Assembly: GCA_965223325.1 (NCBI GenBank)
Contig: CBDCWI010000002.1
Location: 1,664,001-1,728,000, forward strand
Source of the DNA: Candidatus Multivoradales bacterium
Lineage (GTDB): Bacteria > Acidobacteriota > Thermoanaerobaculia > Multivoradales > Multivoraceae
DNA length: 64,000 nucleotides
Reading direction: 5' to 3'
The notes under the pieces are model-generated. The model was not told the DNA's origin, made no database searches, and saw only the letters and a list, made by a program, of their open reading frames with translations. This document shows, piece by piece, positions 966 through 58,800 of the stretch; position 1 is the stretch's first letter, and every line of letters starts with the position of its first letter. A program made the position numbers and the translations under genes.

Positions 966-1331
966 CGGACTCGATCCTTTCTGAGCGTTTGAAGATTCAG
1001 ATTCCGGCAGCGGCGCCGAACCCGAAACAGACGTCAATCTAGTGAAGGTGTGCCCGAAACGAAGGCGGAACACACAGACGTCCGGTAAGACGTCAGCGGG
1101 CCAATTCTTGCCGATTGTTGCTGAAACAGCTGGATGATCGTACCGGTGTCTGGCCTTCGCCGTATGTGCCTGAGAACACAGGATTCTTGGGAATATCTTG
1201 GACTGTACCTGAAAGGTTCTTGAAGACTTATTGAATAATTCTTGAATATATGGCTAATCTTCGATATCTTTGTTCCGTCGCGATCGGCTTGGGAGAGCAC
1301 GAGCGACGCCAACAACGACCGCAGGGTAGCC

Positions 1332-2606
1332 ATGAACATTTCAAGTCTGATCCCGTCTGCTTCCGCCCTGATGCTGCTGTGCAGCCTCGCTGGCCCCACT
1401 CTCGCCGTAAGCCCTTCTGAGTTTCCGCGCCCGGACCTGGTGTTCGCGCCCGGTACGCCGCAGCACTACGTCGACAACATGAACGAACGCTACGGCACGC
1501 TCGACAGCATGACCTCCCGCGCCCACGCCGGCTCGCGCTGGATCGCGACGGCGACCGATGGCGGTGGCCTTCAGCCCGGCGACCCGATCACCTTGACCTG
1601 GGGCTACCTGGCCGAGGGAACGATGATCGAGGGCGACGCCGGCGAGGCGGCCTCGCCCAACAACTTCCACGCCTGGATGAACTCGCTCTACCCGGGCGGC
1701 TTCGCCGAGTGGCACCCGCTCTTCGTCTCGATGTTCGAGCGCTGGGGGGCGGTGGCCGGGATCACCTACGTCTACGAACCGAACGACGACGGTGCCGAGT
1801 TTCCCCGCGAGCGCGGACTCCTCGGCGTACGGCCCGACGTTCGCATCGGCGCACACCGCATCGACGGCAACTACGGAATGCTCGCCTACAACTCCTACCC
1901 CACCCGCGGCGACATGATCCTCGACTCTTACGACGCCTACTTCGACAGTAAGGCACTCAACTCGCTGCGGCTGCGTAACACCATCGCCCACGAGCATGGT
2001 CATGGCATCGGCCTGCGTCACGTCTGCCCCGCCAACGGCACCAAGCTGATGGAGCCCTGGCTGTCGACCAACTTCGACGGTCCACAGCACGACGACATCC
2101 TCGGTGCGCAGCAGCACTATGGCGATCCCAACGGCGCCAACAACTGGTCCTCCACGGCAACAGCGCGCTCTACGACCTCAACCACCTCCTACGCCAGCAT
2201 CGACTCAGGAACCGAGGAGGACTGGTTCTCGGTCCAGCTACGTGCTGACGAACCGATCGATGTCCGCGTGATCGCCGAAGGTGCCGCCTACAGCATCGGT
2301 TCCGAAGACGACGCGTGCCAGATCAGAAACGACGACTCGCGACTCCATCGCGACCTGGGAGTCGAGTTCCTCGACCGCAACGGGCAGACGGTGCTCGCCT
2401 CTTCCGACACCTTCGGTCCCGGCGGCACCGAGCGCTTTCAGGTCCGCGCCCCGAACACAGGGCGCTACTTCGTACGCGTACACGGCGCGTCCGGCCTCGG
2501 AGTTCAGCCCTATCGACTGCAACTCACCGGCGAGCGCACCGCGAACCCGCTCATCAGCTTCAACGACTTCGAAGGGGGTAAGGCGAACGTGTTCCATCGG
2601 CCCTGA
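1332..2606 (+). CDS. Secreted matrixin-like (M10) zinc metallopeptidase with C-terminal PPC-like domain
   Basis: Signal peptide MNISSLIPSASALMLLCSLAGPTLA; metzincin motif HEHGHGIGLRH; Met-turn KLMEP; EEDWFSV PPC-like segment. Confidence 0.85.
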   Translation: MNISSLIPSASALMLLCSLAGPTLAVSPSEFPRPDLVFAPGTPQHYVDNMNERYGTLDSMTSRAHAGSRWIATATDGGGLQPGDPITLTWGYLAEGTMIEGDAGEAASPNNFHAWMNSLYPGGFAEWHPLFVSMFERWGAVAGITYVYEPNDDGAEFPRERGLLGVRPDVRIGAHRIDGNYGMLAYNSYPTRGDMILDSYDAYFDSKALNSLRLRNTIAHEHGHGIGLRHVCPANGTKLMEPWLSTNFDGPQHDDILGAQQHYGDPNGANNWSSTATARSTTSTTSYASIDSGTEEDWFSVQLRADEPIDVRVIAEGAAYSIGSEDDACQIRNDDSRLHRDLGVEFLDRNGQTVLASSDTFGPGGTERFQVRAPNTGRYFVRVHGASGLGVQPYRLQLTGERTANPLISFNDFEGGKANVFHRP

Positions 2607-2784: not shown

Positions 2785-2969
2785 TGCGCCCCGACCCACC
2801 CTCATGACGAGGGCTCTTTCTCATTGAGCCTCACTCCTTTGCCGCGCTCGACTCTCGCCAGGGTTTGCCATACTCAGCCTCACGTTTGATGCCTGACATC
2901 CGAGGCACCAGCGCAGGGTCCGTGCCGATCGGCGACCGGTCACCGGCCGGGTGCACCAGGCGAAGCCCG

Positions 2970-3923
2970 ATGAATCCCATGACAGAAGCCCACCTCCACC
3001 GACCGAGAGTCTCAGCGTCTCTCAGAAGTCTCGCGCGGCCGCGGAGTTCTTCCCTAGCGTTTGCGGTCTCCGCTTTCGCCATGCTTCTGTACGGCGGTCT
3101 CGTGTCCTCGCAACAGGCTCCCGACCTCTCCTGGGCTCGCGTGACCTGGTCGGAACTCGAGCTCAAGGCGAAGAAGCTCTTGATGACGGCGACCGCCAGA
3201 GTCGAGCTCACGCCGGTACCAGGAGCAAAGGCACGGGAACAACTCGGCCCGCTCGGCTCCGGCACGCCGCGCATGCCGAGAGAGACGGCCATCCAACTCG
3301 GTTTGCACTCAGACTTCGTCGGTCGCCGCTCGAGTACCAGGCTGTGGGTCGACCCCGCCGACGCCTCGGCCTTCGAGCGCCACCAGATCGAGAGTGGCAA
3401 GCGCCAGCGCTCGAAACGCTATCGCTACGCTAGCGAAGGGGTCTGGTCCGAGCGTCTGGTCCCGAGAGACAAGTCTGAGAGAACCCTCGCACCCGAGCGT
3501 TGGAGCGACCGACAGGAAAAGTTCGACCAGCTCCCCGCAGCCAGGACGCGCGGTCTGAGCGAGCCCGGCGCGCTCCTCTACCTGATCTCGGCAGCGGCAA
3601 TCGAGGACCTCGAGCAAGGCATCACCTTTCCGGTCTTCACCCGCGGGCAAACGACGGCGGTCGTCGCTCGCGGCGTCAAGCGGGTTGCCGTGCCGGTGAA
3701 CTTCAACGTCGCGGGCAAAACCATCTCAGGTGACCGTGCCGCACTCCTGGTAACCCTCGACGCCGAGTCCACCGACGGAAAGGAAGAGTTCGAGTTGCTC
3801 GGTCTCGAAGGTGACATCGAGATCTACCTCGATCTCGAGCACCGCATGCCGCTCATGATCTCGGGACGGGTCTCACCGGTGGGAAAGGTGAACATTCGCC
3901 TGACCCGGGCGACCCTGCGCTAG
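2970..3923 (+). CDS. Hypothetical exported or membrane-anchored beta-rich protein (possibly DUF3108-like)
   Basis: Long ORF with a hydrophobic segment LAFAVSAFAMLLYGGLV; C-terminal IEIYLDLEHRMPLMISG..VNIRL pattern; start uncertain. Confidence 0.55.
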   Translation: MNPMTEAHLHRPRVSASLRSLARPRSSSLAFAVSAFAMLLYGGLVSSQQAPDLSWARVTWSELELKAKKLLMTATARVELTPVPGAKAREQLGPLGSGTPRMPRETAIQLGLHSDFVGRRSSTRLWVDPADASAFERHQIESGKRQRSKRYRYASEGVWSERLVPRDKSERTLAPERWSDRQEKFDQLPAARTRGLSEPGALLYLISAAAIEDLEQGITFPVFTRGQTTAVVARGVKRVAVPVNFNVAGKTISGDRAALLVTLDAESTDGKEEFELLGLEGDIEIYLDLEHRMPLMISGRVSPVGKVNIRLTRATLR

Positions 3924-3937
3924 CCGAGATCCTTTCT

Positions 3938-6409
3938 TCAAGCGTCGAGCGGCTCGCCGGTATCGAACAACGGCTGCGCGATGCCGCTTGTCGAAAGTGA
4001 CCAGGGCGTCCACAACAGAAGCTGCTGGTTGACTGCGATATCAGTCTTGAGGGGACGCACGTCAATGCGCTCGAGCTCAGTGTCGGCCTCCTCGAGCCGC
4101 TCTCGCAGCGCGTCGAGCTCCCGCGCCGCCTCGGCCTCCAACTCGGTTTGCTGTTCGAGCAACACCTCGAGCTTCTCCTCGGCGTGCTCGACGTCTTCTC
4201 GATCTTTCGAGCTGCGGCCGAAACCACGAATCGCCATCCCGGCGCGTCGAACGGCGGTGGCGCTGAGCTTCTTGCGCCCCATGAGAGTCCCGAGAACCCC
4301 TACACCGACATTGACCAGCGCGGAGCGCTTGCTGTCTTTGAGTTGCACCTTCTCCTTCTCGACCCGCTGGCGCGCCGTCAGGAGTTTCCCCTCGAGCGAC
4401 TCGAGCTTCTTGGCGTAGCTTTGACGCAGCTTCTCCACTGCTAGATCGCGCGCTTCCTTGAGGTCCTGCTGAATACGGCGTCGAAAGTCGCCCTCGGTTT
4501 CGCCAGGCTCGGAGTACTGCTTGAGTCCAGGGTGTTTCCAGATGGTCTCGAGCTGGGTGCGGTAGAGCTCCGACGACATCTTCTTCGCCGCCGCACTCCA
4601 GGATTTCTCGCGCATGCCCGGCGCGGCGAGCGGCGCGAAGCGGGCCCCCTTCTCGGGCCGCTTCCAGAGCTTCGGCTCCTCGGGCAGGCGCGCCGCCTCT
4701 TCCCAGCTGAGGCTGCGCGAACCCTCCTCGATGGGCGCAACCAGAAAGATCTCTCGCCAATCATCGAGACCAACACTGGTGCGCTTGAAATGCATCTCCG
4801 CCGCACCGAACATCATTGGCCGGTAGACCAGCTCCTGGTTGTCCTGCAGGTCCTCCTGCGGACGAAGGAAGCGCTCCACCACCGCCGCCGGCAGCTGCGG
4901 CCGCTCGGCAGCTTCGGAAGCCTCGGCTGCGACCTTGTTGGCCGAAGCCTCGCGAGCCTTCTCTTTCGCAGTCGGCCTGGTGAGTGCGCGGCGCGCCCCC
5001 TCCATGAGGCGTTGAATCTCCGCCCGCACCAGCGGCCCGCGCAAGTAGGAGAGCACCCAGCGGGTCTCGAGCACGACCGGTGCATCTTCGTGCACATTGT
5101 TGAGCAGGAAGCGGCGCTTACCGAGCCGACCAATCGTCTCTTCAAGCTCGCTCTTGTCGAGTTCCCGGCCGGCATCGGTCGACGCACCCTCGAGACCGCC
5201 CAGCACCCGCGCACGATCACGCTCCGTCTGAAGGCGGCCAATGAACCAGCTGCCGCAGTTCGAGAGGCCTTTGTAGTCGAGATCGACCGGGTTCTGCGTC
5301 GCCAGCAGGACACCGACGCCGTAGGCGCGCGCCTGCTTGAGCAGCGTCAGCATCGGGACCTTGGAGGGCGGATTCGCCGTTGGCGGAAAGAAGCCGAAGA
5401 TCTCGTCCATGTAGAGGAGGGCCCGAAGACTGCTGGTTCCGGTCTGCGACCGCATCCACGAGACCATCTCGTTGAGAATCAACGTGACCACGAACATCCG
5501 CTCGGCATCACTCAAGTGAGCAATCGAAATGACCGAGATCTTCGGCCGCCCGTCGGGACCGTACAGGAGGTTCCCGATATCGAGTGGCGCACCTTCCATC
5601 CAGGCCGAGAACCCGGGTGACGCCAGCAGGTTGTTGAGCGACATCGCCAGAGCGCTACGCTCCTTTGCCGGCAGGAACGTCTCGAGATCCATCACTCCCA
5701 GGCGATCGAACGGCGGCTCGACGATGGCGCGGATCATTCCCGCAAGATCGAGATCCTGACCGTCGCGCCAGGAATGGTCGAGGATGTTCGAGATCAGAAT
5801 ATGCTCGCGACTCTGCAGCGGATCGGCCTCGATGCCCAGAAGCGACAGCAGCCCTGAAACCGCCGACTGGGTGCGCTCGCGCAGCGCGTCCGGGTCATCT
5901 CGAACGGCCTCGCCCGGGGCGGCAAAGGACCGCAGCACCGAAAGCGAAAGCCCCGAAGTCGCACCGGGGGTGTAGATCGACACCTCGGCAGCTTCCCTGA
6001 AACGTTGGATCCGGGATGGTTCCTGACCCCACTCAGCCAGACCGTTCTTCCACAGCTCGGCCGTGTCAGCGGCGTACTCGGCCGTCGAACGACCGTTGCG
6101 GGTCGCCTCGGCCGGATCGACCCAGGGCTCGAAGTCCTCTGGCCGTAGCTGGGGGAAGGTCAACATGAGGTTGCCCATGTCTCCCTTGGGATCGATGACC
6201 AGACTGGGAATGCCATCGATCGCAGCCTCCTCCAGGATGCCCACCGAAAGACCCGTCTTGCCGCTCCCCGTCATGCCGACAATCACCCCATGCGTGGTCA
6301 GGTCACGCGAGTCGTAGAGCACCGGCTCGTCGCTGGGCTCACCGTCTTCCGCGACGCGCCGACCAAGGTAGAAGGTCCCGAGTTTTTCGTAGTCCGCTGC
6401 TGCAACCAT
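3938..6409 (-). CDS. HerA/FtsK-superfamily P-loop ATPase (DUF87/DUF853-like) with C-terminal coiled coil
   Basis: THGVIVGMTGSGKT Walker A, IDPKGD, LYMDE Walker B, KQARAYGVGVLLATQNPVDLD. Confidence 0.85.
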   Translation of the reverse strand: MVAAADYEKLGTFYLGRRVAEDGEPSDEPVLYDSRDLTTHGVIVGMTGSGKTGLSVGILEEAAIDGIPSLVIDPKGDMGNLMLTFPQLRPEDFEPWVDPAEATRNGRSTAEYAADTAELWKNGLAEWGQEPSRIQRFREAAEVSIYTPGATSGLSLSVLRSFAAPGEAVRDDPDALRERTQSAVSGLLSLLGIEADPLQSREHILISNILDHSWRDGQDLDLAGMIRAIVEPPFDRLGVMDLETFLPAKERSALAMSLNNLLASPGFSAWMEGAPLDIGNLLYGPDGRPKISVISIAHLSDAERMFVVTLILNEMVSWMRSQTGTSSLRALLYMDEIFGFFPPTANPPSKVPMLTLLKQARAYGVGVLLATQNPVDLDYKGLSNCGSWFIGRLQTERDRARVLGGLEGASTDAGRELDKSELEETIGRLGKRRFLLNNVHEDAPVVLETRWVLSYLRGPLVRAEIQRLMEGARRALTRPTAKEKAREASANKVAAEASEAAERPQLPAAVVERFLRPQEDLQDNQELVYRPMMFGAAEMHFKRTSVGLDDWREIFLVAPIEEGSRSLSWEEAARLPEEPKLWKRPEKGARFAPLAAPGMREKSWSAAAKKMSSELYRTQLETIWKHPGLKQYSEPGETEGDFRRRIQQDLKEARDLAVEKLRQSYAKKLESLEGKLLTARQRVEKEKVQLKDSKRSALVNVGVGVLGTLMGRKKLSATAVRRAGMAIRGFGRSSKDREDVEHAEEKLEVLLEQQTELEAEAARELDALRERLEEADTELERIDVRPLKTDIAVNQQLLLWTPWSLSTSGIAQPLFDTGEPLDA

Positions 6410-6493
6410 CGTAACCTCTCATCGAACGCGGGAGTCGCCGGGCCCGTCCCTCGACCTCAGACCTTCTCCAGGGCAGACGGTCCCTCGCTCTTG

Positions 6494-8575
6494 CTACCCG
6501 GCAGGCACTCCACGATAGCGGACGATCTCGGAGTCGAACAGCACCGCGCCTTCGCCTTTGCTGACGATCAGCTTCTCGAAGTGGTCAACCACTTTCTGGC
6601 GGCGCTCTTCGAGGCGTTCCATCTCCCACTCCTGCAGCACATCGCCCAGTTCGCGCTCGAGAACCGGGGCATCCAGGTCACGGAGGCGTTCGAACATCAC
6701 CCGCTCGACGCGCCGCAAGTCTTCGAGAGCCGGGATCTCGCTGCTGGCGCCAAAGGCACGCGTGTGGTCGATCAACCACAACTGCCAGGACTCGTCAATC
6801 AGGAGGTTGCCCTGGTTGCGGTCAGTGTTCATGATGACCGCGTCGAAGACTTTCATGACCGCCTGCTGGTTCTGCCAGTCGATCGGAATCGGAGCCCAGT
6901 CCTTCTCTTTCTGACGGTCACCCTCAGTGCGCGCCTTCTCGACCCATAGTTGAAACGACGCCGGTCCACCTCGCCACGTTCGCTGCACGGCGACTGGCAC
7001 CATGTCGAGGCGCAAGAGACGGGCCAGGCGGTAGGCGGCAACCTCGAAACGATGGGAATCGATGAACGGAGCCAGCAAGCGGCCGTCTTTCAGGCGATGC
7101 TTCGCCTGGTGCTTGTCGACTGTTCTGATCACGGCCCGCGCGATGATGTCGCGGCCTTCGAGATCGACGCGCGTCGGCTTGTTGACACCGGTTGGAATCT
7201 GATCTTCGCCGATGATCTTCGCGGTTGCCAGGAACTCCTCGACTTCCCGATGGCTACCAAACGGCAGCACGGTGTCGCTGGGCCCGAGCCAGCGGTGCCG
7301 CGTGGTCCGGGTCAAGGTCGGGGGCAGCGGGGCGCCAGGACCGAAGTTGTCCGGCGGTGGCGGCACCTCGAGAAGGACCTCCTCGTCCGAATCAGCGTAG
7401 ATCACTCTCCAAACGCCATCGTCGGTGATCTCGAACGCCGAGGCGCGCCCGCCATAGGTTCGCTTGAGCATGCCCGTATCCAACAGAACGACTCGGCCAC
7501 CGAACCTCGGAGTCACGCGAAACCCCTTGATCGGAGTGTGACCAACAACCAATGCTCGGGCGCCTAGCCGCTCGAGATGTTGGGTGACGAGCACATTCCC
7601 CTCTTCGTCGTCCCAACGCGCGAAGCCTCGAAACCAGAGTGGCCCATCGGGATCAACCAGAGTCCATTCGTCGTAGCCACGACAATCGGCCAAGGCTTCG
7701 AGTGAACCTTCGAAGAAGGCACGCTGCTCGGGGTCGAGCTTGCGATCGAGTTGCTCGAGCAGGTACTCACGCTCGAGATCACCGGCACGGGCGAGCTCGT
7801 AGGCCCCCGCCGTAGCCGTAGCGACGCCACCTTCGACCGCCATGCTGCGGCAGCGGTCGTAGGTCTCGAGCTCCCAACGAACACGCTCGTTGAACTCTTC
7901 GAGGCTCTTCGTGCCGTGGGTTGGATGCAGGCCCGCGTGCAAGAAGATCACGTCTTCGACCCGCGCGATGATCGGCAGCGTCCGCAACCAGGAACCGATT
8001 GCACCAGCAGGTGACAGCGCCGCCTGGTACTCAATCCAACCGGGTGGGCGGTTGGCGAGAAACTCCTCTTTGTCTTTGTTTGACGTTCCAGCTGCACCGC
8101 GACGCTTGCCGAGTCGCTTGCTGCGCCGCTCGAGGAACAGAACGTGGTCTTCCCAGGCCTGCGCGCGACGGTCCTCCGAGTGCTCGTCGATGAACTCGGC
8201 CAGTGCATCTGCAGCGACGTCGCGGTAGATGCCGAGCAGGTTCATGCCCTCGTGGTTGCCCAGCAGCACGGTCACGCGACCATTGTCCTGGGGGGCTTCG
8301 CGCTGCAGTCGTTTGAGCAGCTCGACGACCCGAATGTGGTCGGGGCCTCGGTCGAGAAAGTCGCCGGTCTGGACGAGGTGCGTACTGCCACCGCTCCAGC
8401 GCAGCTCTTCGTCGACCAGCTCGAGTTTTGAAAGAAGCGCGGTCAACGAATCGTAGTCGCCGTGAATATCCGCAATCGCCACCACCCGGGCCGCCACCGG
8501 GCCGGTCGCCGCGAGCGACAACAAGACGAGAAGCCCTGCGATGAGGGCCTGCCAGCCACTGAGTCGCAGTCGCAC
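6494..8575 (-). CDS. Exported metallophosphoesterase (Shewanella-like PPP phosphatase) fused to a C-terminal PI3/PI4-kinase-like domain
   Basis: Signal peptide ending AATGPVAA; phosphatase motifs DIHG, GDFLDRG, GNHE, HAG, GHT, LDTG; kinase-like motifs EVAAYRLA..MVP, SFQLWVE, FDAVIMNTDRNQGNLL, WLIDHTRAF; GTG start shares a base with the upstream TAG. Confidence 0.8.
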   Translation of the reverse strand: MRLRLSGWQALIAGLLVLLSLAATGPVAARVVAIADIHGDYDSLTALLSKLELVDEELRWSGGSTHLVQTGDFLDRGPDHIRVVELLKRLQREAPQDNGRVTVLLGNHEGMNLLGIYRDVAADALAEFIDEHSEDRRAQAWEDHVLFLERRSKRLGKRRGAAGTSNKDKEEFLANRPPGWIEYQAALSPAGAIGSWLRTLPIIARVEDVIFLHAGLHPTHGTKSLEEFNERVRWELETYDRCRSMAVEGGVATATAGAYELARAGDLEREYLLEQLDRKLDPEQRAFFEGSLEALADCRGYDEWTLVDPDGPLWFRGFARWDDEEGNVLVTQHLERLGARALVVGHTPIKGFRVTPRFGGRVVLLDTGMLKRTYGGRASAFEITDDGVWRVIYADSDEEVLLEVPPPPDNFGPGAPLPPTLTRTTRHRWLGPSDTVLPFGSHREVEEFLATAKIIGEDQIPTGVNKPTRVDLEGRDIIARAVIRTVDKHQAKHRLKDGRLLAPFIDSHRFEVAAYRLARLLRLDMVPVAVQRTWRGGPASFQLWVEKARTEGDRQKEKDWAPIPIDWQNQQAVMKVFDAVIMNTDRNQGNLLIDESWQLWLIDHTRAFGASSEIPALEDLRRVERVMFERLRDLDAPVLERELGDVLQEWEMERLEERRQKVVDHFEKLIVSKGEGAVLFDSEIVRYRGVPAG

Positions 8576-9087
8576 TACAGATTCCCCATCGCTTCGTCTG
8601 GAATCACCGCCGGCGTAGCTCGCAGATCGGAGTCGTCCTCTTCTTCACCCGAACGCCAGCGACGGTCCTGGAGGATGCGGCGAAAAAGGCCCTTCACGAT
8701 TTCAATGTTGTTCGAGAGCAAATCAAAAAAGTCATCGGCTTCGAGCACCAGTGCCGTCGTGCGACTCACAGCGCGCGCCGAACCGCGGCGCAGACGACCC
8801 GAGAGAACTTCGCGCACGCCGAACGGCTCGCCGGCGCGCACCTCAAGGCTTCCGCCATGCGCCTCTTCGACCGTCGCCAACCCATCGACGACGCAGTAGA
8901 TCGCCAGCGGTTCGCAGTTGGCCTCGTAGATCAAGGCGCCCTCTTCGAAGGTTTCGGTGCGCGCGATCTCGGCGATTCGGAGGATCTCGCGGGCGCTGCA
9001 GAAGCGGAATAGATCGATCTGCTGCAATAGCATGACGATCTCGATCCTCGCCGGCGCCGACGGGTCGTTGTTGGCGAAACCACTCAT
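8575..9087 (-). CDS. Stand-alone cyclic-nucleotide-binding (cNMP/Crp-type) domain protein
   Basis: LLQQIDLF, FEEGALIY, IYCVVDG, GEPFGVREVL..RRGSARA pattern; no HTH. Confidence 0.8.
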   Translation of the reverse strand: MSGFANNDPSAPARIEIVMLLQQIDLFRFCSAREILRIAEIARTETFEEGALIYEANCEPLAIYCVVDGLATVEEAHGGSLEVRAGEPFGVREVLSGRLRRGSARAVSRTTALVLEADDFFDLLSNNIEIVKGLFRRILQDRRWRSGEEEDDSDLRATPAVIPDEAMGNL

Positions 9088-9137
9088 CCCTGAACTGAAT
9101 CAACCTATCACGCGGCCCGCTCATTCCAGGCTCCCAT

Positions 9138-12014
9138 TCACTCGGCATTAGCGGGCACGCCAAGAGGGCCCGGCCCGGCAAGACGAGCGAGAAGCCAATG
9201 TGCGGTTTCGGCGGCAATCTCGCTCGTTGACGTCGTTGCCTGCTGCGCGACCCGTGCCGCCACTCTGGACTCGAGCGCCTGTGCCACCTCGTAGAGAGCC
9301 GCAGCAGCGATCCACTCGCGGGCGTGATCGACGGGCTTCCCATCGGCGCGCGTTGCGGCCAGCGAGAGTTCGCATAACGTCTCGGCGCGCCCTTCTAGAA
9401 CCTCGCCGGTCTCGCGCTCGGCCAACCGCAGGCGCGCCGTCAGCGGAAGATCGTCGATGACCGAGAGCACGGCCCGACGCAGGGGGCCCGTCAGGATGTT
9501 GTCGAGGTACTCGAGGGCATGACCTCCGACCTCCGTCGAGGTGGAGTGAAGACCACGCCGAACCAGGCCGATGTCGGAGCGGTCGGCGAGCATCTCGAGC
9601 AGGTCGAAAATGTTGTGGACCAACTCCTGCATCGACTCCGCCAACAGGCGCTCGAGGAGCGAAGGCACCTTGCCTTCGGCGAAGCAGACCTGGCCACCGA
9701 CGAGCTTGAAGCGCCGGAGCGGATCGAGGGCAGCCAGGCGTTGAAGCCTCGCAAGGTAGGCACGACACTCTCTCTCGATCTGGCTCCTGACCGCTGCCGC
9801 CTGTTCGTCGCTGAAGCGGAACCCCTCTAGCGAGCGCAGCGCCTCGATCACCTTGCGCCTCAGGAAGGAGTCGCTAGAGTCGAGACTGGCGATCAGCGCT
9901 GCCATCGCGGACTCGGTTCCGACCCGCGCAACCGTCTTGGGAAGCGCCCGGCGCACCCACAGCTGCTCGTCCTCTGCCGACATGAAGTGAGCCAGCGCCG
10001 GTACGACCGTCTCCCCATAGCTGACCAGCGTTGAGCGCGCCTCATGCTTGACGTGGCGATGGCCGAGAAGCGAAATCAGAATCGGAATGTAGAGCGGTTG
10101 CGGCCCGGAGTTCTCCATCCGCCTCGAAAGCGACGCCACGGCAGCACGAACCACCGCCGGGTCGCGATCGTAGAGCAGGGTGACCGCATGCTGCTGGAAG
10201 CGCGGCTCGGGTACTTCGGCAAGCGCCTTGGCAGCTTCGATCCGAACGGCGGCCGACGAATCGGTCACCAGCTCGACGAACGCGGCCTCAGCCTCCGCCA
10301 ACCACGACTCATCTTCTTGCGCGGCCAGGCATGCCACGGCGGCGGCGCGAACCCGCAAGTCGCCGTCGTGCAGTCTGGTGCGCATCAACACCGGAGCCTC
10401 CTGGTCCGACAGTCTTGCCATGGTGCGAATCGCAATCGCCCGTACATCGGGGTCGTCGTCACCGATCAGCGAGGTGACGAGGGGCAAGGCCTCGCGCCGC
10501 TCAGCGGCCGCAACGACCTTGAGCACTCGAAGGCGCACGGCGGCGTCCTCGTGGTGCAAGAGAAGCGGCGGTACCAAAGACCCCTTACCGTGTGCAGTGA
10601 GGAGCTCGATTGCACCCAGCGCGCGCTGGCCGTTGAGACTGCCCATCGCTTCGACGAGTGCCTCAATCGCCCCCGGCGAGGAGAGATCGAAACGACGCGC
10701 CAACTCGTTCTCACTGATTCCACTCGGCGCCAGGCTCTGACGTAGGGAAGCGACGTACTCGCGGCGAGCCGAGAAGGTAAACAGCAACCAACCCAGGCAC
10801 GCCGCCAGCGTCAACCAGCCGGCATCGAGCGGCGTGAGCAACCCGAAGGTAACCAAAAAGAGCAGGAGGGCGGCGGCGCTCTTGGCAAAGCGCTGGACCA
10901 GAACGTCGATGTAGGCCTTCGCCTTGCGCCGGTCGCGCTCGGGAACCGGGACGAAGAGGAGTTCGCGGGTCGACTGGTCGAGAGAGTGCCTTAGGCCGTT
11001 CTCCCCGACTTTCAGACCCGCAACGATCAGAAGAATGAGTGCCGGCGCGAAACTCACCGCAAAGAACAGCATCAGCGTCCCGGCAATCAGACCGCTCGGC
11101 AGGACCCGCATGGCAAAGCCAACGCCAAGGGAACGATGAATGCGCGAGGTGAGAAGCAACTGAAAGGCGAACGCCGCCAGCCCCATGACGCTGAAGACGT
11201 TGCCGAACACCAGGGTGCGTTCGGCTAGCGAACTCGTTTGCTGCTCGACAACCCAGTTGAACTGCAGGTCGATGACCTGTGCGACCACGACGCTGAGCAC
11301 CATGAGCGCCGAGATCGCCATCAGAAGGCGCGAACCGAGAATCACCTCGAGACCGCCGCGCGGATCATTCCCCGACACCGGCTCCGGCTCGGGCCGTCCC
11401 TGCGCTCGTGCGCGGGACTCAACGAAAAACGTCAGGATCGCAATGCCGCCGAGAAGAATCGCCGCCGCGATCAAGGTGCGCTGCGGGTCGCCGCCCACCA
11501 GACGCGGGATCTGACCACCGGCAACCGCTCCTAGGAGTCCACCGGCGCTGATGAAACCGAACAGACGCCGTGCTTGGCGCGGATCGAAGAGCTGCTGGGC
11601 GAACGACCAGAACTGGCTCATCGCCAGAACCGTGGCCACCGACACCCAGAGGTAGAACAGCACGCGTATCCACGCCGAAGGCTGCGCAAACAAATAGGCG
11701 AACACCAGCATGCCGGTTGCCAGGAGAGTCGACGTCCCGGCCAGGACCACCTGCAGACGCCATCGATCGGTCGCCGCGGCATACAGTCGAATGACCGGAT
11801 AGGCCACGATCGCAACCAGCAGATAGACAAAGGGCAGGCGCTCGGCACCCAGCGAGTCGACGAAGGTCGACTGGCGCACGGTCTTGGCGGCGTACTGAAA
11901 CGTCCCGAGCAAGAAGCAGTGCGAGAAGAACAGGAAGGCGAGCATCGACTCGCGTCGCCTCAGGTCGACTCCCAAGGCACGCAGGAGCGCCCGCAATCGG
12001 GAAGCGAGACTCAT
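9138..12014 (-). CDS. Npt1/Npt2 (TLC, ATP/ADP translocase-like) nucleotide transporter fused to HEAT repeats
   Basis: About 12 TM N-terminal domain with KTVRQSTF, SQFWSFAQQLFDPRQARRLFGFI, RHSLDQSTRELLFVPVP..RKAKAYID; C-terminal HEAT repeats (DDDPDVRAIAI, DGDLRVRAAAV, DRDPAVVRAAV). Confidence 0.85.
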   Translation of the reverse strand: MSLASRLRALLRALGVDLRRRESMLAFLFFSHCFLLGTFQYAAKTVRQSTFVDSLGAERLPFVYLLVAIVAYPVIRLYAAATDRWRLQVVLAGTSTLLATGMLVFAYLFAQPSAWIRVLFYLWVSVATVLAMSQFWSFAQQLFDPRQARRLFGFISAGGLLGAVAGGQIPRLVGGDPQRTLIAAAILLGGIAILTFFVESRARAQGRPEPEPVSGNDPRGGLEVILGSRLLMAISALMVLSVVVAQVIDLQFNWVVEQQTSSLAERTLVFGNVFSVMGLAAFAFQLLLTSRIHRSLGVGFAMRVLPSGLIAGTLMLFFAVSFAPALILLIVAGLKVGENGLRHSLDQSTRELLFVPVPERDRRKAKAYIDVLVQRFAKSAAALLLFLVTFGLLTPLDAGWLTLAACLGWLLFTFSARREYVASLRQSLAPSGISENELARRFDLSSPGAIEALVEAMGSLNGQRALGAIELLTAHGKGSLVPPLLLHHEDAAVRLRVLKVVAAAERREALPLVTSLIGDDDPDVRAIAIRTMARLSDQEAPVLMRTRLHDGDLRVRAAAVACLAAQEDESWLAEAEAAFVELVTDSSAAVRIEAAKALAEVPEPRFQQHAVTLLYDRDPAVVRAAVASLSRRMENSGPQPLYIPILISLLGHRHVKHEARSTLVSYGETVVPALAHFMSAEDEQLWVRRALPKTVARVGTESAMAALIASLDSSDSFLRRKVIEALRSLEGFRFSDEQAAAVRSQIERECRAYLARLQRLAALDPLRRFKLVGGQVCFAEGKVPSLLERLLAESMQELVHNIFDLLEMLADRSDIGLVRRGLHSTSTEVGGHALEYLDNILTGPLRRAVLSVIDDLPLTARLRLAERETGEVLEGRAETLCELSLAATRADGKPVDHAREWIAAAALYEVAQALESRVAARVAQQATTSTSEIAAETAHWLLARLAGPGPLGVPANAE

Positions 12015-12190
12015 CGCCGCGGGCCTTGGGCAGCAGGCGAGACGAGACCTCCAGGCCCTCTGTTCATGGACCCCCTCTGGCGGGCACGGTGCTGATTGAC
12101 CTCACGTGACCTCTGTATACGTTGGGAAGAGTGCAATAGATGCTAACCGAGTGACCCGCACGACGATCGAGAGCCCGGTACCATTGCCCT

Positions 12191-14164
12191 ATGACCGGTT
12201 TCGCATGGCATCCCGGCGCCGAGCACCTCGAACAGAGCCGCATCGCGCGCTTCATGAATCGCCACAGCATCGCGACCCCCAGCGAGCTACGGAGGCGCTC
12301 GACAGACGACCTCGCCTGGTTCTGGCAGGCAGCAATCGAGGACCTGGGAATCGAATTCGATCAACCCTACGAACAGGTCCTCGACAAGAGCGCCGGCGTG
12401 CCCTTTACGGAATGGTTCACCGGCGGCCGTCTCAACCTGGTCGGCAACTGCCTCCACCGCCATCGCGGCGGCCCCCTGGCCGATACCCCGTGTCTAGTGG
12501 GTCTGCACGAGACCGACGGCTCTGGCACCGAAGAGGTGCGCTACACCTTCGCCCAGCTCGCCGCCGAAGTCGACCGCTGCGCCGCTGCTCTCGTGCGGGC
12601 CGGTATCGAGCCTGGCGATCGGGTCGCCGCCTACATGCCGATGATCAGCGAAGTCGTCGTCCAGATGTTGGCCACCATTCAGGTCGGGGCGGTTTTCGTA
12701 CCAGTCTTCAGCGGCTATGCGCCGGCGGCCCTGGCAGAGCGGGTCCAGGACGCCAAGGCACGCCTGCTTTTCGTTGCCGACCGTTCCTCGAGGCGTGGCA
12801 AGCCGGTCGCCATCCTGCCCAACGCGCAGGAGGCGCTGGAAGAATGCCCGAGCGTCGAGAAGATGGTGGTCGTCGTCCGAGGTTTGCCCGGCGACCCGGA
12901 AGTCGAGCTCGACCTGGGTCGAGACGTCGCCTGGTCTGAGTTTCTCGCCAGCGGAAGCGGTGCCGGACAAACCGGTGAGCCGGTTTCGATGGCAGCGATG
13001 GATCCGGCGCTCATTCTCTACACCTCGGGCACCACTGGGCGACCGAAAGGCACCGTACACTCCCACGCCGGCACCCTCGTGCAACTCGCCAAGGAAGTCG
13101 GCTACGCCTTTGACGTTCACCCCGGCGACCGCTTTTTCTGGTTTACCGATATCGGCTGGATGATGGGTCCCTGGGCGATCATCGGCGGCCTCTTCCACGG
13201 CGGCACCGTCTACCTCTACGAAGGTGCCATCGACCACCCCACACCCGATGCGCTCTGGGCACTGCTCGAGAAGCATGAGATCAGCATCTTCGGGATCTCG
13301 CCCACCGCGATTCGGATGTTGATGGGGCTGGGGACCGAAGTGGTCGAGCGCCGCGACCGCAGCGCCCTGCGCATCCTGGGCTCGACCGGCGAACCGTGGG
13401 ACCCTGAGAGTTGGCAGTGGTACTTCGAACACCTGGGCGGCAAGCGCTGTCCGGTGATCAACATTTCGGGCGGCACCGACATCATCGGCTGCTTCTTGTC
13501 ACCGCTGCCCGTCGATCCGATCAAGCCGTGCTCTCTGGTCGGGCCAGGCCTCGGGATGGCGGTCGAAGTGTGGAATGACGAAGGCCAGCCGGTTAGAGGC
13601 GACGTCGGCTACCTGGTCGCCACCCAGCCCGCACCGTCGATGACTCGCGGGCTGTGGGGTGATCGCGAGCGCTACCTGGAGGCCTACTGGTCGCGGTGGC
13701 CCAACGTCTGGAACCACGGCGACTGGGCAATCATCGACGAGGACGGGCAGTGGTTCCTGCAGGGCCGTTCGGACGACACCCTGAAGGTCGCTGGGCGGCG
13801 CATCGGGCCCGCCGAGCTCGAAGGTGCGCTCATCGAAACCGGCCACGTCAGGGAAGCGGCAGCGGTCGGCGTACCCCACGACATCAAGGGCACCGGCATC
13901 GTCTGCTTCGCCGTCCTGCTGCCGGGTATCGAAGCGACCGAGGAACTGCGCCAGGAACTCGAGGCCGCAGTCGTCAGGCGACTCGGTAAGGTCGACCGCC
14001 CGGAGCGCATCGTCTTCGTCCCCGACCTTCCAAAGACCCGCTCGGCCAAGATTCTGCGGCGCATGGTGCGCGCCCGCTACCTGGGTGAGGACCCGGGGGA
14101 TCTGGCCTCGGTACAGAACCCTGAAGCGCTGGCGGGAATCCCCGTAGCCTCCACGGAGGTTTGA
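12191..14164 (+). CDS. Acetate/acyl-CoA ligase (AMP-forming)
   Basis: YTSGTTGRPKG, STGEPW, GRSDDTLKVAGRRIG, LPKTRSAKILRR. Confidence 0.9.
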   Translation: MTGFAWHPGAEHLEQSRIARFMNRHSIATPSELRRRSTDDLAWFWQAAIEDLGIEFDQPYEQVLDKSAGVPFTEWFTGGRLNLVGNCLHRHRGGPLADTPCLVGLHETDGSGTEEVRYTFAQLAAEVDRCAAALVRAGIEPGDRVAAYMPMISEVVVQMLATIQVGAVFVPVFSGYAPAALAERVQDAKARLLFVADRSSRRGKPVAILPNAQEALEECPSVEKMVVVVRGLPGDPEVELDLGRDVAWSEFLASGSGAGQTGEPVSMAAMDPALILYTSGTTGRPKGTVHSHAGTLVQLAKEVGYAFDVHPGDRFFWFTDIGWMMGPWAIIGGLFHGGTVYLYEGAIDHPTPDALWALLEKHEISIFGISPTAIRMLMGLGTEVVERRDRSALRILGSTGEPWDPESWQWYFEHLGGKRCPVINISGGTDIIGCFLSPLPVDPIKPCSLVGPGLGMAVEVWNDEGQPVRGDVGYLVATQPAPSMTRGLWGDRERYLEAYWSRWPNVWNHGDWAIIDEDGQWFLQGRSDDTLKVAGRRIGPAELEGALIETGHVREAAAVGVPHDIKGTGIVCFAVLLPGIEATEELRQELEAAVVRRLGKVDRPERIVFVPDLPKTRSAKILRRMVRARYLGEDPGDLASVQNPEALAGIPVASTEV

Positions 14165-14219
14165 ACAACCCTTGACATTCCAACCCTCACCTTCCTCCTC
14201 TCGACCGGAAACCCAGCGA

Positions 14220-15104
14220 ATGAACTGGCCCCCTGTTTCGACTCTCCGCCCCCTCAACCGACTAAAGCGTCTCCTCTGCCTCGCCATTTCGCTGTGCTGG
14301 ATCGGCCCCTTCGCCGGTTCCGCGCTAGCCGCCCAGGAGCCACTCGAGGTGGCACCCGGAAGCACCGTGCGCTGGATTGCTCTCGGAACGCAGACCTGCC
14401 ACCTCCGTGGAGCGGCAGGAGACGACCGCAGTTGGCCCGCCAAGAAGGGCATTTGCTACATCCCGATCGACCTGACGCGCACCGGAACCATCGAAGCCAT
14501 GCGCACCTTTCCCGACGGCCGTTATGAGCGCCTGACACTGCGGGTCGGCGACTATCCCTACCCGGAACAGCACATCAAGCTGCAAGATGACAGTCGCGTC
14601 AACCTCTCAGATGCCAATGCCGCGCGCGCCGGGCGCGAGCGCAAACTCATCGACGCCCTGTGGCCCCGCGAAACCGCCAGCCAGTTCGAGCTGCCGCTCC
14701 ATCCGCCGCTCGCCCAGCTTCCTGAGGGTGGTCGGTTCGGAACGCGGCGGGTGTTCAACGGTCAGCCGCGTGGCCCGCACACCGGCCGCGACTATTCCGT
14801 GCCCCGCGGCACTCCGGTGCTGGCGACCGCAAATGGACGGGTCGAACTCGCCGGCGATCACTTCTTCGGCGGCAAGAGCATCTTCATCGACCATGGGGAA
14901 GGACTGATCAGCATGTACTTCCACCTCGACTCGATCGACGTCGAGCAAGGCCAGCTCGTCGAACGCGGCAAGCCGATCGGCAAAGTCGGGAGCACGGGGC
15001 GCTCGACCGGACCGCACCTACACTTCGGGCTGCGGTGGCATGGAGCGCGAGTCGACCCGGCACCGTTGATGGCGGACCCGGAAAAGCTCACCAGCGCCCG
15101 CTGA
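14220..15104 (+). CDS. M23 family metallopeptidase, exported
   Basis: HTGRD (HxxxD), GRSTGPHLHFG, signal-like N-terminus. Confidence 0.9.
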   Translation: MNWPPVSTLRPLNRLKRLLCLAISLCWIGPFAGSALAAQEPLEVAPGSTVRWIALGTQTCHLRGAAGDDRSWPAKKGICYIPIDLTRTGTIEAMRTFPDGRYERLTLRVGDYPYPEQHIKLQDDSRVNLSDANAARAGRERKLIDALWPRETASQFELPLHPPLAQLPEGGRFGTRRVFNGQPRGPHTGRDYSVPRGTPVLATANGRVELAGDHFFGGKSIFIDHGEGLISMYFHLDSIDVEQGQLVERGKPIGKVGSTGRSTGPHLHFGLRWHGARVDPAPLMADPEKLTSAR

Positions 15105-15129: not shown

Positions 15130-17526
15130 ATGGCCGATCCACCTGAACCAAAGCGAAGGGTACCCATCGTCTACGAGCCAACGGCTGGTGAGCTCTTCGC
15201 TGGGCGCTACCGGATCGAGAGCCTGCTCGGTCGCGGTGCCGCGGGCGCGGTGTGGGCGGCAACCGACGAGGCAGTGGGAGACCGCCTGGCGCTCAAGCTT
15301 CTGACCGCTGGCCCCGGCGACGCCGCCGAGCGCTTCCGTCGCGAGGTGCGGTTGGCGCGCCGCGTCACCCATCAGAACGCCGTCCGCATCTTCGATCTCG
15401 GCACGGTCGACGGCGTGCTCTATCTGACGATGGAGCTCATCGATGGCGAGAGTCTGCTCGAGACCCTCGAGCGCGAAGGTCGCATTGCAGTTGCTCAGGT
15501 GCTCGATATCGGTCGTCAGATCGCCACCGGGTTGCACGCCGCACACGCCGTCTCTGTCGTCCACCGCGACATCAAACCGGCCAACGTTCTTCTCGAGGTC
15601 GGCGGCCGCGTCGTTCTAACGGACTTCGGCGTCGCGCGGGCCGTCGCCAGCGATCCGCAGCTGACGGTAGGAAGCGCGATGATCGGAACGCCGTCCTACA
15701 TGGCGCCCGAACAAATCGAAGGCGGCACCGTCAGTCCAGCGACCGATCTCTACGCACTCGGAGCTCTGCTCTACGAGATGGCGACCGGGCGCTGCCCGTT
15801 TGTCGAAGACTCGGCGGTCGCCACCGCGGTGGCGCGCCTCCACAGACCACCCGAAGACCCACGCACGCACGCTTCGCTGCCTGACCAACTGGCGGCGCTC
15901 ATCCTGGAGCTCCTCGAGCTTGCTCCCGAAGATCGACCGACCGGAGCCGAGTACGTCGCGGCCTTACTCGGTGAACTCGAAGCGAAGGCCAGCGACCCAG
16001 ATGCTGCCGAAACCTTCATCGCGGTAGAGAGCCAGGTCGGAGACCGAGGTGTCAGCGCTCGAACAGGTGCTGCCACCGGCAGCGATGCGGGGGGCACCTT
16101 CGTCTCGATCGCTCCGGAGAACCGCACCCTGGCCGTCTTGCCGTTTCGCCACCGCGGACCATCCGAACACTCCTACCTCAGCGAGTCGCTGGCCGAAGAT
16201 CTCGTCGACATCTTCACCGCGACTCGCGGCTTGCGAGTCACCGCCAGCGGGGCGACCGCCAAGTACCACGGGCAAACCGTCGATCCGCGCGAGGCTGGAA
16301 GGGAGCTAGGGGCCGACGCGATCGTCGACGGCAGCGTGCGCATCGCGGGGACCAAGGTGACCGTGTCCGCAAGGCTGATCGATGTGCAGCCGGGCGAACA
16401 GCTGTGGGCAGACCGTTTCGATCTGGCGCTCGATGATGCGGTATCTGACCCGGACGTCACCGCCCAGCGCATCGCCGAACAGCTACGTCGCGAGCTCGAG
16501 CTCTTGAGCGCCCGGCACCAGGCGCCGGCGCAAGCGATCGAGCTCTTGATCAGGGCGCGCGAGCGTTCACTGTCGGGCGAGATCGCCGACGACGCGTTCA
16601 CCGAAGCCATGAAGCTGCTCGATGAGGCGATCGCCCTCGCTCCATCATTCGCCCTGGCCATAGCGACCCACGCCGAGTTCGCGGTTCGTCGATGGTTCCT
16701 GCCATCACGGGGCTCGGACGAGGACTTCGCGCGCGCGGCTCACGAATCCGTCGCGCGCGCCCTCCTGGAGGCCGCCGAGATTCCGCTCAGCCACTTCGCC
16801 GCCGGCCGCTTGGCGGTCAGCGATGGGCGCTTCTCCGATGCCGCGAGCGAGCTGGGGTTGGCGCTCCGCATGGCTCCCACGTTCGCGGCCGTCTACGACT
16901 ACCTTGGCATGCTGCAGTGCGAAGCCGGTCGCGCCGACGAGGGGGAGCGCAACATCGTGCTGGCGCAGCGCATCGATCCCAGCCTCCCGGTGAGACCCGA
17001 GCTTGCCCGCCGGCGGGCCTTGGCCAACCAGCTCGACGAGTACCGCGAACTGATCGAGGAAATGCGCGCAACGCCGTCAGCATCGCGCTTCATGGTGGAC
17101 TCGATCGAGATGCGTGTTGCAGGTTGGTACGGCGACGTCGAAGGAGTCAAGCGGTGTCGGCCCGCCTCGCTGCTTCCTCCCGAAAGCGAGTTCCTGGACT
17201 TCATGCTGGCTCAGCAGGCCTGCCTGATTGGCGAAGGCACACCCGAGGACCTGGTGCGCAACCTGGAGCGAGTACTCGGCTCGGGTGGCCCACGCCTCGA
17301 CGCGTTCATCCGTCAGTTGACCATCGAAGCCTTGGCGCCCGCAGGTGCCACTGAGGAGGCGATGGCACAGCTGCACGTTGCAGTAGCCAAGCCGGCCTTC
17401 GTCGATGCCGACTGGATGGAGCGCTGCCCCGCCCTCGAGTCTTTGCGCAGCCACGAGGACTTCGGCGGCCTCAGCGACGAGGTCCGGCGTCGAGCGGACG
17501 CGATCTGGTCTGTGCGCGCGTCATAG
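15130..17526 (+). CDS. Hanks-type Ser/Thr protein kinase with TolB-N-like and TPR domains
   Basis: GRGAAGAV, ALK, HRDIKPAN, DFG, GTPSYMAPE; LAVLPF...GSVR..LID domain; helical C-terminus. Confidence 0.9.
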   Translation: MADPPEPKRRVPIVYEPTAGELFAGRYRIESLLGRGAAGAVWAATDEAVGDRLALKLLTAGPGDAAERFRREVRLARRVTHQNAVRIFDLGTVDGVLYLTMELIDGESLLETLEREGRIAVAQVLDIGRQIATGLHAAHAVSVVHRDIKPANVLLEVGGRVVLTDFGVARAVASDPQLTVGSAMIGTPSYMAPEQIEGGTVSPATDLYALGALLYEMATGRCPFVEDSAVATAVARLHRPPEDPRTHASLPDQLAALILELLELAPEDRPTGAEYVAALLGELEAKASDPDAAETFIAVESQVGDRGVSARTGAATGSDAGGTFVSIAPENRTLAVLPFRHRGPSEHSYLSESLAEDLVDIFTATRGLRVTASGATAKYHGQTVDPREAGRELGADAIVDGSVRIAGTKVTVSARLIDVQPGEQLWADRFDLALDDAVSDPDVTAQRIAEQLRRELELLSARHQAPAQAIELLIRARERSLSGEIADDAFTEAMKLLDEAIALAPSFALAIATHAEFAVRRWFLPSRGSDEDFARAAHESVARALLEAAEIPLSHFAAGRLAVSDGRFSDAASELGLALRMAPTFAAVYDYLGMLQCEAGRADEGERNIVLAQRIDPSLPVRPELARRRALANQLDEYRELIEEMRATPSASRFMVDSIEMRVAGWYGDVEGVKRCRPASLLPPESEFLDFMLAQQACLIGEGTPEDLVRNLERVLGSGGPRLDAFIRQLTIEALAPAGATEEAMAQLHVAVAKPAFVDADWMERCPALESLRSHEDFGGLSDEVRRRADAIWSVRAS

Positions 17527-19781: not shown

Positions 19782-20091
19782 TAGGACTCTCCAAAGGAAG
19801 GAAAAAGGACTGGGGGAAACCCCAGAACGAGAGGGCCATGGAAAACAGATGGGCGCAGAAGTGCGGGGGCAGAAGAGCCACCAAAGGAGGGAATGCCAGC
19901 ATTGTACACATAAGTCGCTATATGTGCACATGGGATCACCCTCCTACCTATCTATGGTTGTGTGGCGATTCCCCCAACAGGCCAGACGCACCCCTGGCCG
20001 CCGCCAACCTCGTCCGGACTTGTCTGATGTCACACACCCACAAGGACTTGCAGCCCCTGTGCGCCTCCCCGATACAGCACCCCCGTTGTCA

Positions 20092-37386: not shown

Positions 37387-37416
37387 AGGGTTCCTCGGTG
37401 GCGCTTCTCGCGATGC

Positions 37417-50410: not shown

Positions 50411-50591
50411 CGCACCGCCTTGCGCGATGCGGGCCGAGCGCCCGTGCGAAGCATCGATCAAATAGAATATGAAGGTACCGCCGCCCGGGAGAACCCTCCG
50501 GGGTTCGCTGCCCGCTGCACCGACCTTCCTTGATTGACGCGGCACCGCCCTCCCGGTGGCGGAACCGCCAGTACCCCAGAGGCTCAACCAC

Positions 50592-51086: not shown

Positions 51087-51333
51087 GACCGCAACGACCT
51101 GGCAGGAAGGTTCGTCGAGGAATCACGGCGCGACCCGTCCCACCACGTCCCTCCTCACCCGGGTCCTGCCCGCCAGGTAGGTGGTAGCCAGCTCCCATCA
51201 CCCACCGCAGATCCTGAAAGCCAAATCAGCGACAACGAAGCCAAGAATCCGCGGCGCGTGCAAGACCAACGAAGGCCGATGACGCAAGAGCAGGGCCAAG
51301 ACCTTCGAAGACAAAAACGCAACGGACCGCTTG

Positions 51334-58782: not shown

Positions 58783-58800
58783 CAACAAACAGCCCCGAGG

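Follow-up and report, generated by a model that had tools for sequence, protein, structure and literature searches.

Three co-oriented, tightly spaced genes on the minus strand at positions 6494-12014 of a 64,000-nucleotide stretch of the genome of a Candidatus Multivoradales bacterium (the window; coordinates without a locus label are those of this stretch) are best explained as one copy of a widespread, undescribed four-part module of the bacterial envelope. The first part would be an inner-membrane nucleotide carrier of the NTT type, the second a cytoplasmic regulatory arm made of HEAT repeats and a bound cyclic nucleotide-binding domain (cNBD) subunit, and the third and fourth an exported PPP-type phosphatase and an exported Fam20-like kinase, which in this genome are fused into one protein. 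An initial annotation of the locus had proposed that the transporter exports ATP and imports ADP, gated through the HEAT-cNBD module, and thereby fuels a kinase/phosphatase cycle in the envelope, an interpretation that is partly supported by the analyses described below. The best available reading of the locus is that the carrier supplies ATP to the periplasm for phosphorylation there, and we give this reading a probability of roughly 0.5. The association of the carrier with the cNBD protein was known, and what is new is that a PPP phosphatase and an exported Fam20-like kinase are coupled to that pair.

The carrier gene (9138-12014, minus strand) encodes a protein of 958 residues with a 12-helix NTT/TLC-type transporter at its N-terminus and a HEAT-repeat arm at its C-terminus. 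It is followed, after a spacer of 50 nt (9088-9137) that has no terminator-like site inside, by the gene for a stand-alone cNBD protein (8575-9087, minus strand; 170 residues, without an export signal), a predicted cytoplasmic subunit of the carrier. The third gene (6494-8575, minus strand) starts with GTG and encodes the phosphatase/kinase-like fusion, a protein of 693 residues that is predicted to be exported; its start codon and the TAG stop of the cNBD gene share base 8575 within a TAGTG junction (8573-8577, minus strand). This arrangement is as the initial annotation had described it, and each of the domains that it had named (TLC, HEAT, cyclic nucleotide-binding, Metallophos and PI3/4K-like) was found by Pfam.

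The kinase-like domain of the fusion protein (6527-7285, minus strand; residues 431-683) shows detectable homology to the secretory-pathway kinases of the Fam20 family. When the domain was modelled alone with 39 sequences, the model had a predicted local distance difference test score (pLDDT) of 91.5 and a predicted template modelling score of 0.89, and in an unbiased structural search of this model against 48,161 chains the highest-ranking fold was that of hydra Fam20 (Z 19.3, 238 aligned residues, 21% identity), followed by zebrafish Fam20C (Z 18.9), Caenorhabditis elegans Fam20 (Z 18.0) and PI4K-II alpha (Z 17.1). Lower in the ranking, with which Foldseek agrees, were CtkA (Z 15.6), actin-fragmin kinase (Z 12.8), HipA (Z 11.8) and CotH (Z 10.8). 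By fold, PI4K-II alpha trails the Fam20 proteins by about 2 Z units only. A comparison of the family profile with all PDB sequences gave the same leading family, with expect values (E) of 2e-13 for FAM20A, 1.6e-9 and 2.3e-9 for Fam20C, 1.8e-8 for a Fam20B-like xylosylkinase and 4e-7 for C. elegans Fam20, versus about 5e-3 for PI4K-II, which is a relative of the domain within the same superfamily and a weaker one than Fam20. The analogy that the initial annotation had drawn with secretory-pathway kinases has therefore turned out to be homology, given that Fam20 is closest in both profile and fold.

Pfam models recover this relationship in part. Among the 39 members of the family, 16 matched Fam20C (PF06702; best E 3.3e-5), 4 matched FAM198 and 24 matched PF00454, and the kinase-like domain of the window itself had no match to the Fam20C model at E<=0.1. 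What it did match was PI3_PI4_kinase (PF00454), over the 62 residues from 556 to 617 of the fusion (E 3.5e-6), at 27.6 bits and so barely above the cut-off of 27.1. The HipA_2 model (PF20613) reached 18.2 bits, below its cut-off of 27, with fold Z scores of 11-11.8 to HipA structures, and there was no antitoxin-like neighbour in the list of open reading frames (ORFs) of the window. The protein atlas returned only bacterial clusters that are unnamed or labelled PI3K/PI4K. At the level of residues, the catalytic-loop Asp and Asn (D585 and N590), the metal-binding Asp (D603) and R606 are invariant in all 39 sequences, and D585, N590 and D603 align with the corresponding Fam20 motifs.

Further copies of the kinase-like domain occur in the genome of the window and beyond it. 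A free-standing, exported paralogue (L002, G000:C1:1156900-1160736) has on one side an exported ORF that combines TPR-like repeats with two haem-binding CxxCH motifs, and on the other a 502-residue ORF with a PDZ-like C-terminus; a third, weaker paralogue is found at L003. Some other genomes have an expanded family: G105 has a tandem array of five next to a single carrier (C23:44541-48877), and G153 has 12 matches.

The kinase-like domain is predicted to be exported whether it is fused or free-standing. Residues 1-29 of the fusion (8489-8575, minus strand) form a putative export signal or membrane anchor, in which two arginines are followed by a hydrophobic stretch that ends in Ala-Ala and leads at once into the first phosphatase motif. 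A basic stretch and a hydrophobic core stand directly before that motif in all 25 aligned full-length homologues, and a scripted search of 78 phosphatase ORFs from 80 related loci found a strongly hydrophobic 12-mer no more than 50 residues before the DxHG motif in 72 of them; the remaining ORFs were mostly signal-like by eye. As for the free-standing kinase-like ORFs, a signal of their own was called by script in 20 of 24, and by reading in the other 4 and in 5 further ORFs. These calls were made by hydropathy scripts and sequence reading rather than by a dedicated signal-peptide predictor, and they agree with the export of the fusion that had been suggested earlier, in that such signals precede both the fusion and its free-standing counterparts.

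The segment that follows the putative signal is a PPP-family metallophosphatase domain (7367-8488, minus strand; residues 30-403), which was identified by the Metallophos model (PF00149) at E 1.2e-13 over residues 30-348. The PPP motifs GDxHG, GDxxDRG and GNHE and two later His ligands are invariant in 25 of 25 aligned sequences, the residues in question being D36, H38, D72, D75-R76, N107-H108, H213 and H346. The AlphaFold2 model of the whole fusion had a pLDDT of 85.9. The fold closest to the phosphatase domain is that of the cold-active protein-tyrosine phosphatase of Shewanella (1v73; Z 32.9, root-mean-square deviation 2.5, 264 aligned residues, 26% identity), and PP1, PP2A and PP5 were matched at Z 21-22. 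NCBIfam gave sub-threshold matches only, namely to ApaH, PrpE, the SCO1664 family (TIGR03843; 41.8 versus a cut-off of 172), Pnkp and KdkA. A role in end healing as a polynucleotide kinase-phosphatase was considered and set aside because the fold of the kinase-like domain is not that of a P-loop kinase.

The transporter domain of the carrier (10755-12014, minus strand; approximately residues 1-420) was delimited by a hydropathy script and by alignment to the solved ADP,ATP carriers 9j3j and 9j3n, which were the only solved proteins to match the transporter half at E<=0.001 (the chloroplast carrier 9j3j at E 3e-8 and 9j3n at E 2e-4), and for which no paper turned up in our literature search. 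In this alignment the basic and acidic motifs of the NTT family are retained, with Lys/Arg swaps. Pfam placed TLC (PF03219; E 9.1e-11, 41.7 bits against a cut-off of 21) on residues 222-413 only, MFS_1 on the N-terminal half and HEAT_2 (E 3.2e-24) on the arm, and the score against TIGR00769 was 37.5, far below the cut-off of 387. Twelve hydrophobic segments lie between residues 24 and 416, by the hydropathy script rather than a dedicated topology predictor, and this predicted topology is that of MFS/NTT carriers. Since the N-terminus and the loop at residues 333-370 are both rich in Lys and Arg, both ends of the transporter, and hence the HEAT arm (9141-10682, minus strand; approximately residues 445-958, with HEAT_2 in three stretches and alphaRep/HEAT matches), are likely to be cytoplasmic.

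Structure modelling supports a location of the cNBD protein at the end of the HEAT arm of the carrier. The protein matches the cNMP_binding model (PF00027) at E 2.8e-9 (37.3 bits versus a cut-off of 27.5). In the canonical cassette for cyclic nucleoside monophosphates (cNMP), which we take to comprise a ribose-contacting Glu directly after Phe-Gly and a phosphate-contacting Arg, 16 of 19 cNBD proteins have the Arg, with its canonical spacing, and the other 3 have His instead. When the HEAT arm (residues 430-958) and the cNBD protein were modelled as a complex, the interface score (ipSAE) was 0.65, whereas the best of three controls had 0.00; 58 of 80 solved complexes score this high, as do 2 of 110 mismatched pairs, counts that apply only roughly here as the model used its own alignments, one per partner. 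The pLDDT of the partner was 74 and the contacts agreed by at least 60% between runs. In the modelled interface the N-terminal helix of the cNBD protein (residues 13-36) packs against the last HEAT helices (786-793, 901-908 and 933-940), and both sides sit on conserved columns. Natural three-domain fusions of NTT, HEAT and cNBD are found at three loci (L085, L067 and L087). The HEAT-cNBD module that the initial annotation had placed on the cytoplasmic side thus gains a docking model that passes its controls.

The linkage of the carrier to the exported enzymes holds across phyla and gene orders; like the other computational checks that the initial annotation had named, this one came out in its favour. 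Among 61 relatives, the kinase region was matched in 18; the same 18 carried an NTT-HEAT gene (E<=1.4e-173), and the two were adjacent in 16 of the 18. When 80 loci were retrieved from named genomes with the fusion as query, an NTT gene was found within 5 kb in 39 and within 2 kb in 29, and it was present in 24 of the 45 loci that had at least 5 kb on both sides. These loci come from four or more phyla, including several classes of Acidobacteriota, Gammaproteobacteria (among them Woeseiaceae and Thioalkalivibrio), Myxococcota and Gemmatimonadota. The order of the genes varies, from carrier-cNBD-fusion, as here, to fusion-carrier, to three separate genes in the order phosphatase-carrier-kinase, to a fused carrier-cNBD followed by the kinase and then the phosphatase, and to a convergent fusion and carrier. 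In three gammaproteobacterial genomes (G319, G333 and G346) the pair of fusion and carrier is duplicated in tandem as a unit, and the cNBD gene remains next to the fusion in two relatives whose carrier is encoded at another place (L115 and L116 versus L114). Fusion, fission and reordering around constant parts is a classical signature of functional coupling. At the level of whole genomes, the kinase profile matched 48 of 201 sampled genomes of the window's phylum, all 48 of which also had an NTT-domain match (E<=8e-20), and in five genomes with a carrier-less kinase locus a carrier was found elsewhere in all five. Clustering of the neighbours in the 80 loci yielded no broadly recurrent partner besides the carrier. 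An Omp85 barrel was not seen among the recurrent clusters that were annotated, though no search was aimed at it.

Two exported proteins recur beside the kinase-like genes in subsets of these loci. In loci of the Terriglobia type, a protein of approximately 145 residues follows kinase-only genes (L066:5489-5926 and 12 similar ORFs in 11 loci; examples are L059:15176-15661 and L065:15208-15693); it has a weak CcmE/OB-like match (E 1e-3), sometimes forms repeated pairs with the kinase and is a candidate substrate or partner. With that query there was no match in the genome of the window. In 12 loci of the Woeseiaceae type (L044:3861-4934 and 11 others), an exported 357-residue protein with no Pfam match is encoded just upstream of the fusion, and it has Asp/Asn-rich motifs resembling kinase-like catalytic loops.

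What the computations show is which parts there are and how they are conserved and linked, together with the export signals, the intact catalytic motifs, the Fam20 homology and the HEAT-cNBD docking model; the mechanism that we propose adds a cargo and a direction of transport, a kinase activity, a ligand of the cNBD and a substrate, all of which we infer. The exported domain retains the phosphotransfer residues of ATP-dependent kinases, and so a nucleotide donor would be needed outside the cytoplasm. NTT, to which the one recurrent partner belongs, is to our knowledge alone among transporter families in its known exchange of ATP for ADP, and export of ATP by NTT carriers reportedly has a precedent in one study. 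As the host is a free-living cell, the gradients favour export of ATP and not its import. The carrier would exchange along these gradients, moving cytoplasmic ATP (or another nucleoside triphosphate) out and periplasmic ADP in; the exported kinase would phosphorylate a protein or glycan of the envelope and the phosphatase would reverse this; and the HEAT-cNBD arm would let a cytoplasmic ligand gate the supply, with strict exchange limiting the loss of nucleotide. With regard to the substrate, basal animal Fam20 proteins are glycan kinases (PMC5865150), and as such the substrate here could be either a glycan or a protein.

A number of observations weigh against supply of ATP by the carrier to an active kinase. 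The position of the beta3 Lys is variable, being Arg in 16, Gln in 13, Lys in 6, His in 3 and Asn in 1 of the 39 sequences, with Arg in the protein of the window, and for this reason we call the domain Fam20-like and not a member of Fam20. In addition, the closest Fam20 matches include the pseudokinase FAM20A and a glycan kinase, such that phosphorylation of proteins is not implied. The carrier resembles solved ATP/ADP carriers only distantly, and NTT carriers of other clades transport other nucleotides or NAD. None of the 19 cNBD proteins has the canonical Glu directly after Phe-Gly. ATP that is set free in the periplasm could also leak out of the cell through the porins that bound this compartment.

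The distribution of the genes raises further difficulties. Forty-one of the 80 loci lack a carrier in the retrieved DNA, and a carrier without the kinase was found in 32 of the 153 other genomes of the phylum (E<=1e-19; hand count, with the unpublished G108 included), which indicates that the role of the carrier is other or wider than serving this partner. In the 48 kinase-bearing genomes of the phylum, the two families lie within 5 kb of each other in 16 (hand count among the matches listed). In a gammaproteobacterial order sampled with 101 genomes (the unpublished G275 included), there was no enrichment, as a carrier was present in 42 of 49 kinase-bearing genomes and in 46 of 52 others; the 7 kinase-bearing genomes that gave no NTT match are ones whose completeness was not given, and the families were adjacent (within 5 kb) in 12 of 49 (again counted by hand among the matches listed). 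The sampled genomes are kin, and so all of these counts overstate independence and none amounts to a statistical test.

Of the alternatives, nucleotide scavenging appears unlikely. Here the exported phosphoesterase would act on environmental nucleotides or dinucleoside polyphosphates, the kinase-like domain would serve for binding or processing, and the carrier would import the products. The N-terminus of the phosphatase does match the ApaH and PrpE models of diadenosine tetraphosphate (Ap4A) hydrolases, albeit far below their cut-offs, ApaH is among the fold matches of the phosphatase, carriers are near-universal in one order regardless of the kinase, and some NTT carriers do import (PMC5381601). 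However, protein phosphatases resemble the phosphatase domain far more closely (Z 32.9 and 21-22), the import of intact nucleotides needs no phosphatase, and scavenging leaves unexplained both an exported domain with invariant phosphotransfer residues and the occurrence of several kinase-only paralogues per genome. We are similarly doubtful of a signalling role, in which the exported kinase and phosphatase would act on the periplasmic face of the carrier or on another envelope sensor, and NTT-HEAT-cNBD would be a transceptor or regulator or would deliver a donor other than ATP (GTP, UTP, NAD or similar). HEAT repeats and the cNBD are typical regulatory parts, the cNBD gene keeps to the phosphatase-kinase gene where the carrier is elsewhere (L115 and L116 versus L114), and the variable beta3 Lys would fit such a role as well; but an extracytoplasmic kinase would still need a nucleotide donor, so that the problem of supply is mostly restated, and the carrier retains the charged motifs of nucleotide carriers.

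We regard as improbable a pseudokinase, or a non-kinase function of the kinase-like domain as a scaffold or in other chemistry, that would need no periplasmic nucleotide and would be linked to the carrier only through a shared envelope process. In its favour, the best sequence match is the pseudokinase FAM20A, the beta3 Lys is lost in 33 of 39 sequences and the Pfam kinase match is borderline. Yet all 39 sequences, from across phyla, have the catalytic Asp, the Asn and the metal-binding Asp, the Lys is kept in six lineages and is otherwise mostly Arg or Gln, and there would be no obvious reason for recurrent pairing with a nucleotide carrier. It is very hard to credit that the N-terminal hydrophobic segments are not export signals at all and that the whole system is cytoplasmic. 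The export calls were indeed made with scripts and by reading, and the start codon of the fusion is a GTG inside an overlap, but all three forms (fused, phosphatase-only and kinase-only) have the same basic n-region, hydrophobic core and small-residue site ahead of the domain in different phyla, and the positive-inside rule places the domains outside. Supply of ATP to the periplasm by the carrier remains our preferred reading.

Several known systems resemble parts of the module. Major, Embley and Williams (2017; PMC5381601) reported that NTT-HEAT fusions form one clade that is widespread in free-living bacteria and whose function was unknown, and that the gene is often accompanied by a cNBD gene a few nucleotides downstream or is fused to it; they guessed that cNMP tunes transport, and discussed the uptake of ATP or its transfer between cells or across thylakoids. 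The statement of the initial annotation that such HEAT/cNMP-associated relatives lack a clear function agrees with that paper, although the annotation had missed that the pair was already in print. The locus in the window shares with this clade the NTT-HEAT fusion and the cNBD gene, here 50 nt downstream, and differs in its phosphatase/kinase neighbours, its exported partners and its putative periplasmic role, none of which is named in the portions of PMC5381601 available to us (the article without its supplements). In comparison with the ATP/ADP translocases of Chlamydia, Rickettsia and plastids (9j3j and 9j3n), the carrier has in common the TLC family, 12 helices and the charged motifs, whereas it is distant in sequence (E 3e-8 and 2e-4), bears an extra HEAT arm and a cNBD subunit, and belongs to a free-living host.

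Similarly, the Fam20 proteins (Fam20C, Fam20A and Fam20B; 5yh0, 5wrr, 5xom and 4kqa) are the best match of the kinase-like domain by profile (2e-13 to 4e-7) and by fold (Z 18-19.3), with shared motifs near the catalytic loop and near the metal-binding Asp, and with a location behind a signal peptide and outside the cytosol, which for the bacterial domain is predicted. In contrast to Fam20, the bacterial domain has approximately 250 residues and is without the Fam20 insertions (238 of 351-418 residues align), its beta3 Lys is variable, and a PPP phosphatase and an NTT carrier are its partners by fusion or linkage. The phosphatase domain has its nearest structure in the Shewanella enzyme (1v73 and 2z72) and shares all PPP motifs with it and with the lambda-type bacterial PPP phosphatases; unlike these, it has a kinase-like domain as its fusion partner, and its gene accompanies that of a nucleotide carrier. 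The evolution of Fam20 has been surveyed in animal genomes only (PMC5865150, as far as the available portions go). Our literature search, which covered articles without their supplements, found no description of a link between NTT carriers and exported kinases, nor any of bacterial relatives of Fam20.

The periplasm is taught as an ATP-free compartment, and the periplasmic phosphorylation known to us uses other donors. LpxT bypasses ATP by using undecaprenyl pyrophosphate as its donor, and for Lig E we know of no dedicated ATP carrier. The phosphorylation of lipid A by LpxT takes place in the periplasm and is linked to the synthesis of undecaprenyl phosphate (PMC2229476), and Lig E is a periplasmic ATP-dependent ligase (bioRxiv 10.64898/2026.03.22.713542). 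The module has in common with these enzymes a phosphoryl- or adenylyl-dependent chemistry outside the cytoplasm, and in contrast to Lig E it would supply a dedicated ATP carrier. If our reading is true, a regulated nucleotide exchanger beside exported kinases overturns the picture of an ATP-free periplasm for several large environmental phyla, gives the widespread NTT-HEAT-cNBD proteins, the function of which was unknown in 2017, their first functional context, and reveals bacterial relatives of the Fam20 kinases, hitherto treated as an animal family. We speculate, at somewhat less than even odds, that many free-living diderms (Acidobacteriota, Gemmatimonadota, Myxococcota and Woeseiaceae-type Gammaproteobacteria) run an ATP-fuelled, reversible phosphorylation in the periplasm, in which a regulated NTT exchanger would be the counterpart of the ATP carriers of the endoplasmic reticulum and Golgi and would feed exported kinases that are prokaryotic relatives, and possibly ancestors, of the animal Fam20 kinases.

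With respect to the immediate surroundings of the locus, G+C content is even across the three-gene region. A consensus scan of 3500-12600 found no promoter-like sites, and the ends of the operon are not defined by it; the same interval had 8 terminator-like sites, which is no excess over shuffled sequences, and none of them lies in an intergenic gap. On the same strand, a gene for a HerA/DUF87-like ATPase of 823 residues (3938-6409, minus strand) begins 84 nt past the fusion gene, with no terminator-like site between the two. A HerA-like ATPase follows the fusion in 6 of the 14 loci fetched from relatives (L103, L105, L107, L108, L112 and L113; 54-56% identity). It was considered as a fourth member of the gene set and rejected, as its synteny is confined to the window's family and it is absent from the recurrent gene clusters of the 80 distant loci, and we read its position as local synteny. 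A 352-residue ORF at 2865-3923, which has no Pfam match, may be the partner of this ATPase.

The wider neighbourhood is rich in envelope and secreted proteins (1242-2606, plus strand; 17607-19931, minus strand; 14172-15104, plus strand; and 15130-17526, plus strand), comprising a pair of matrixin (M10) peptidases, with PPC domains in one and InlB B-repeat domains in the other, as well as an M23 peptidase and a Ser/Thr protein kinase of 798 residues. An acetyl-CoA synthetase gene (12191-14164) is divergent from the carrier gene and is syntenic within the family. Finally, AT skew calculated in 2-kb windows shows strong excursions at 36001-38000 (-0.21), 50001-52000 (+0.23), 56001-60000 (+0.17 to +0.23) and 10001-12000 (+0.27), the last of which overlaps the transporter gene.

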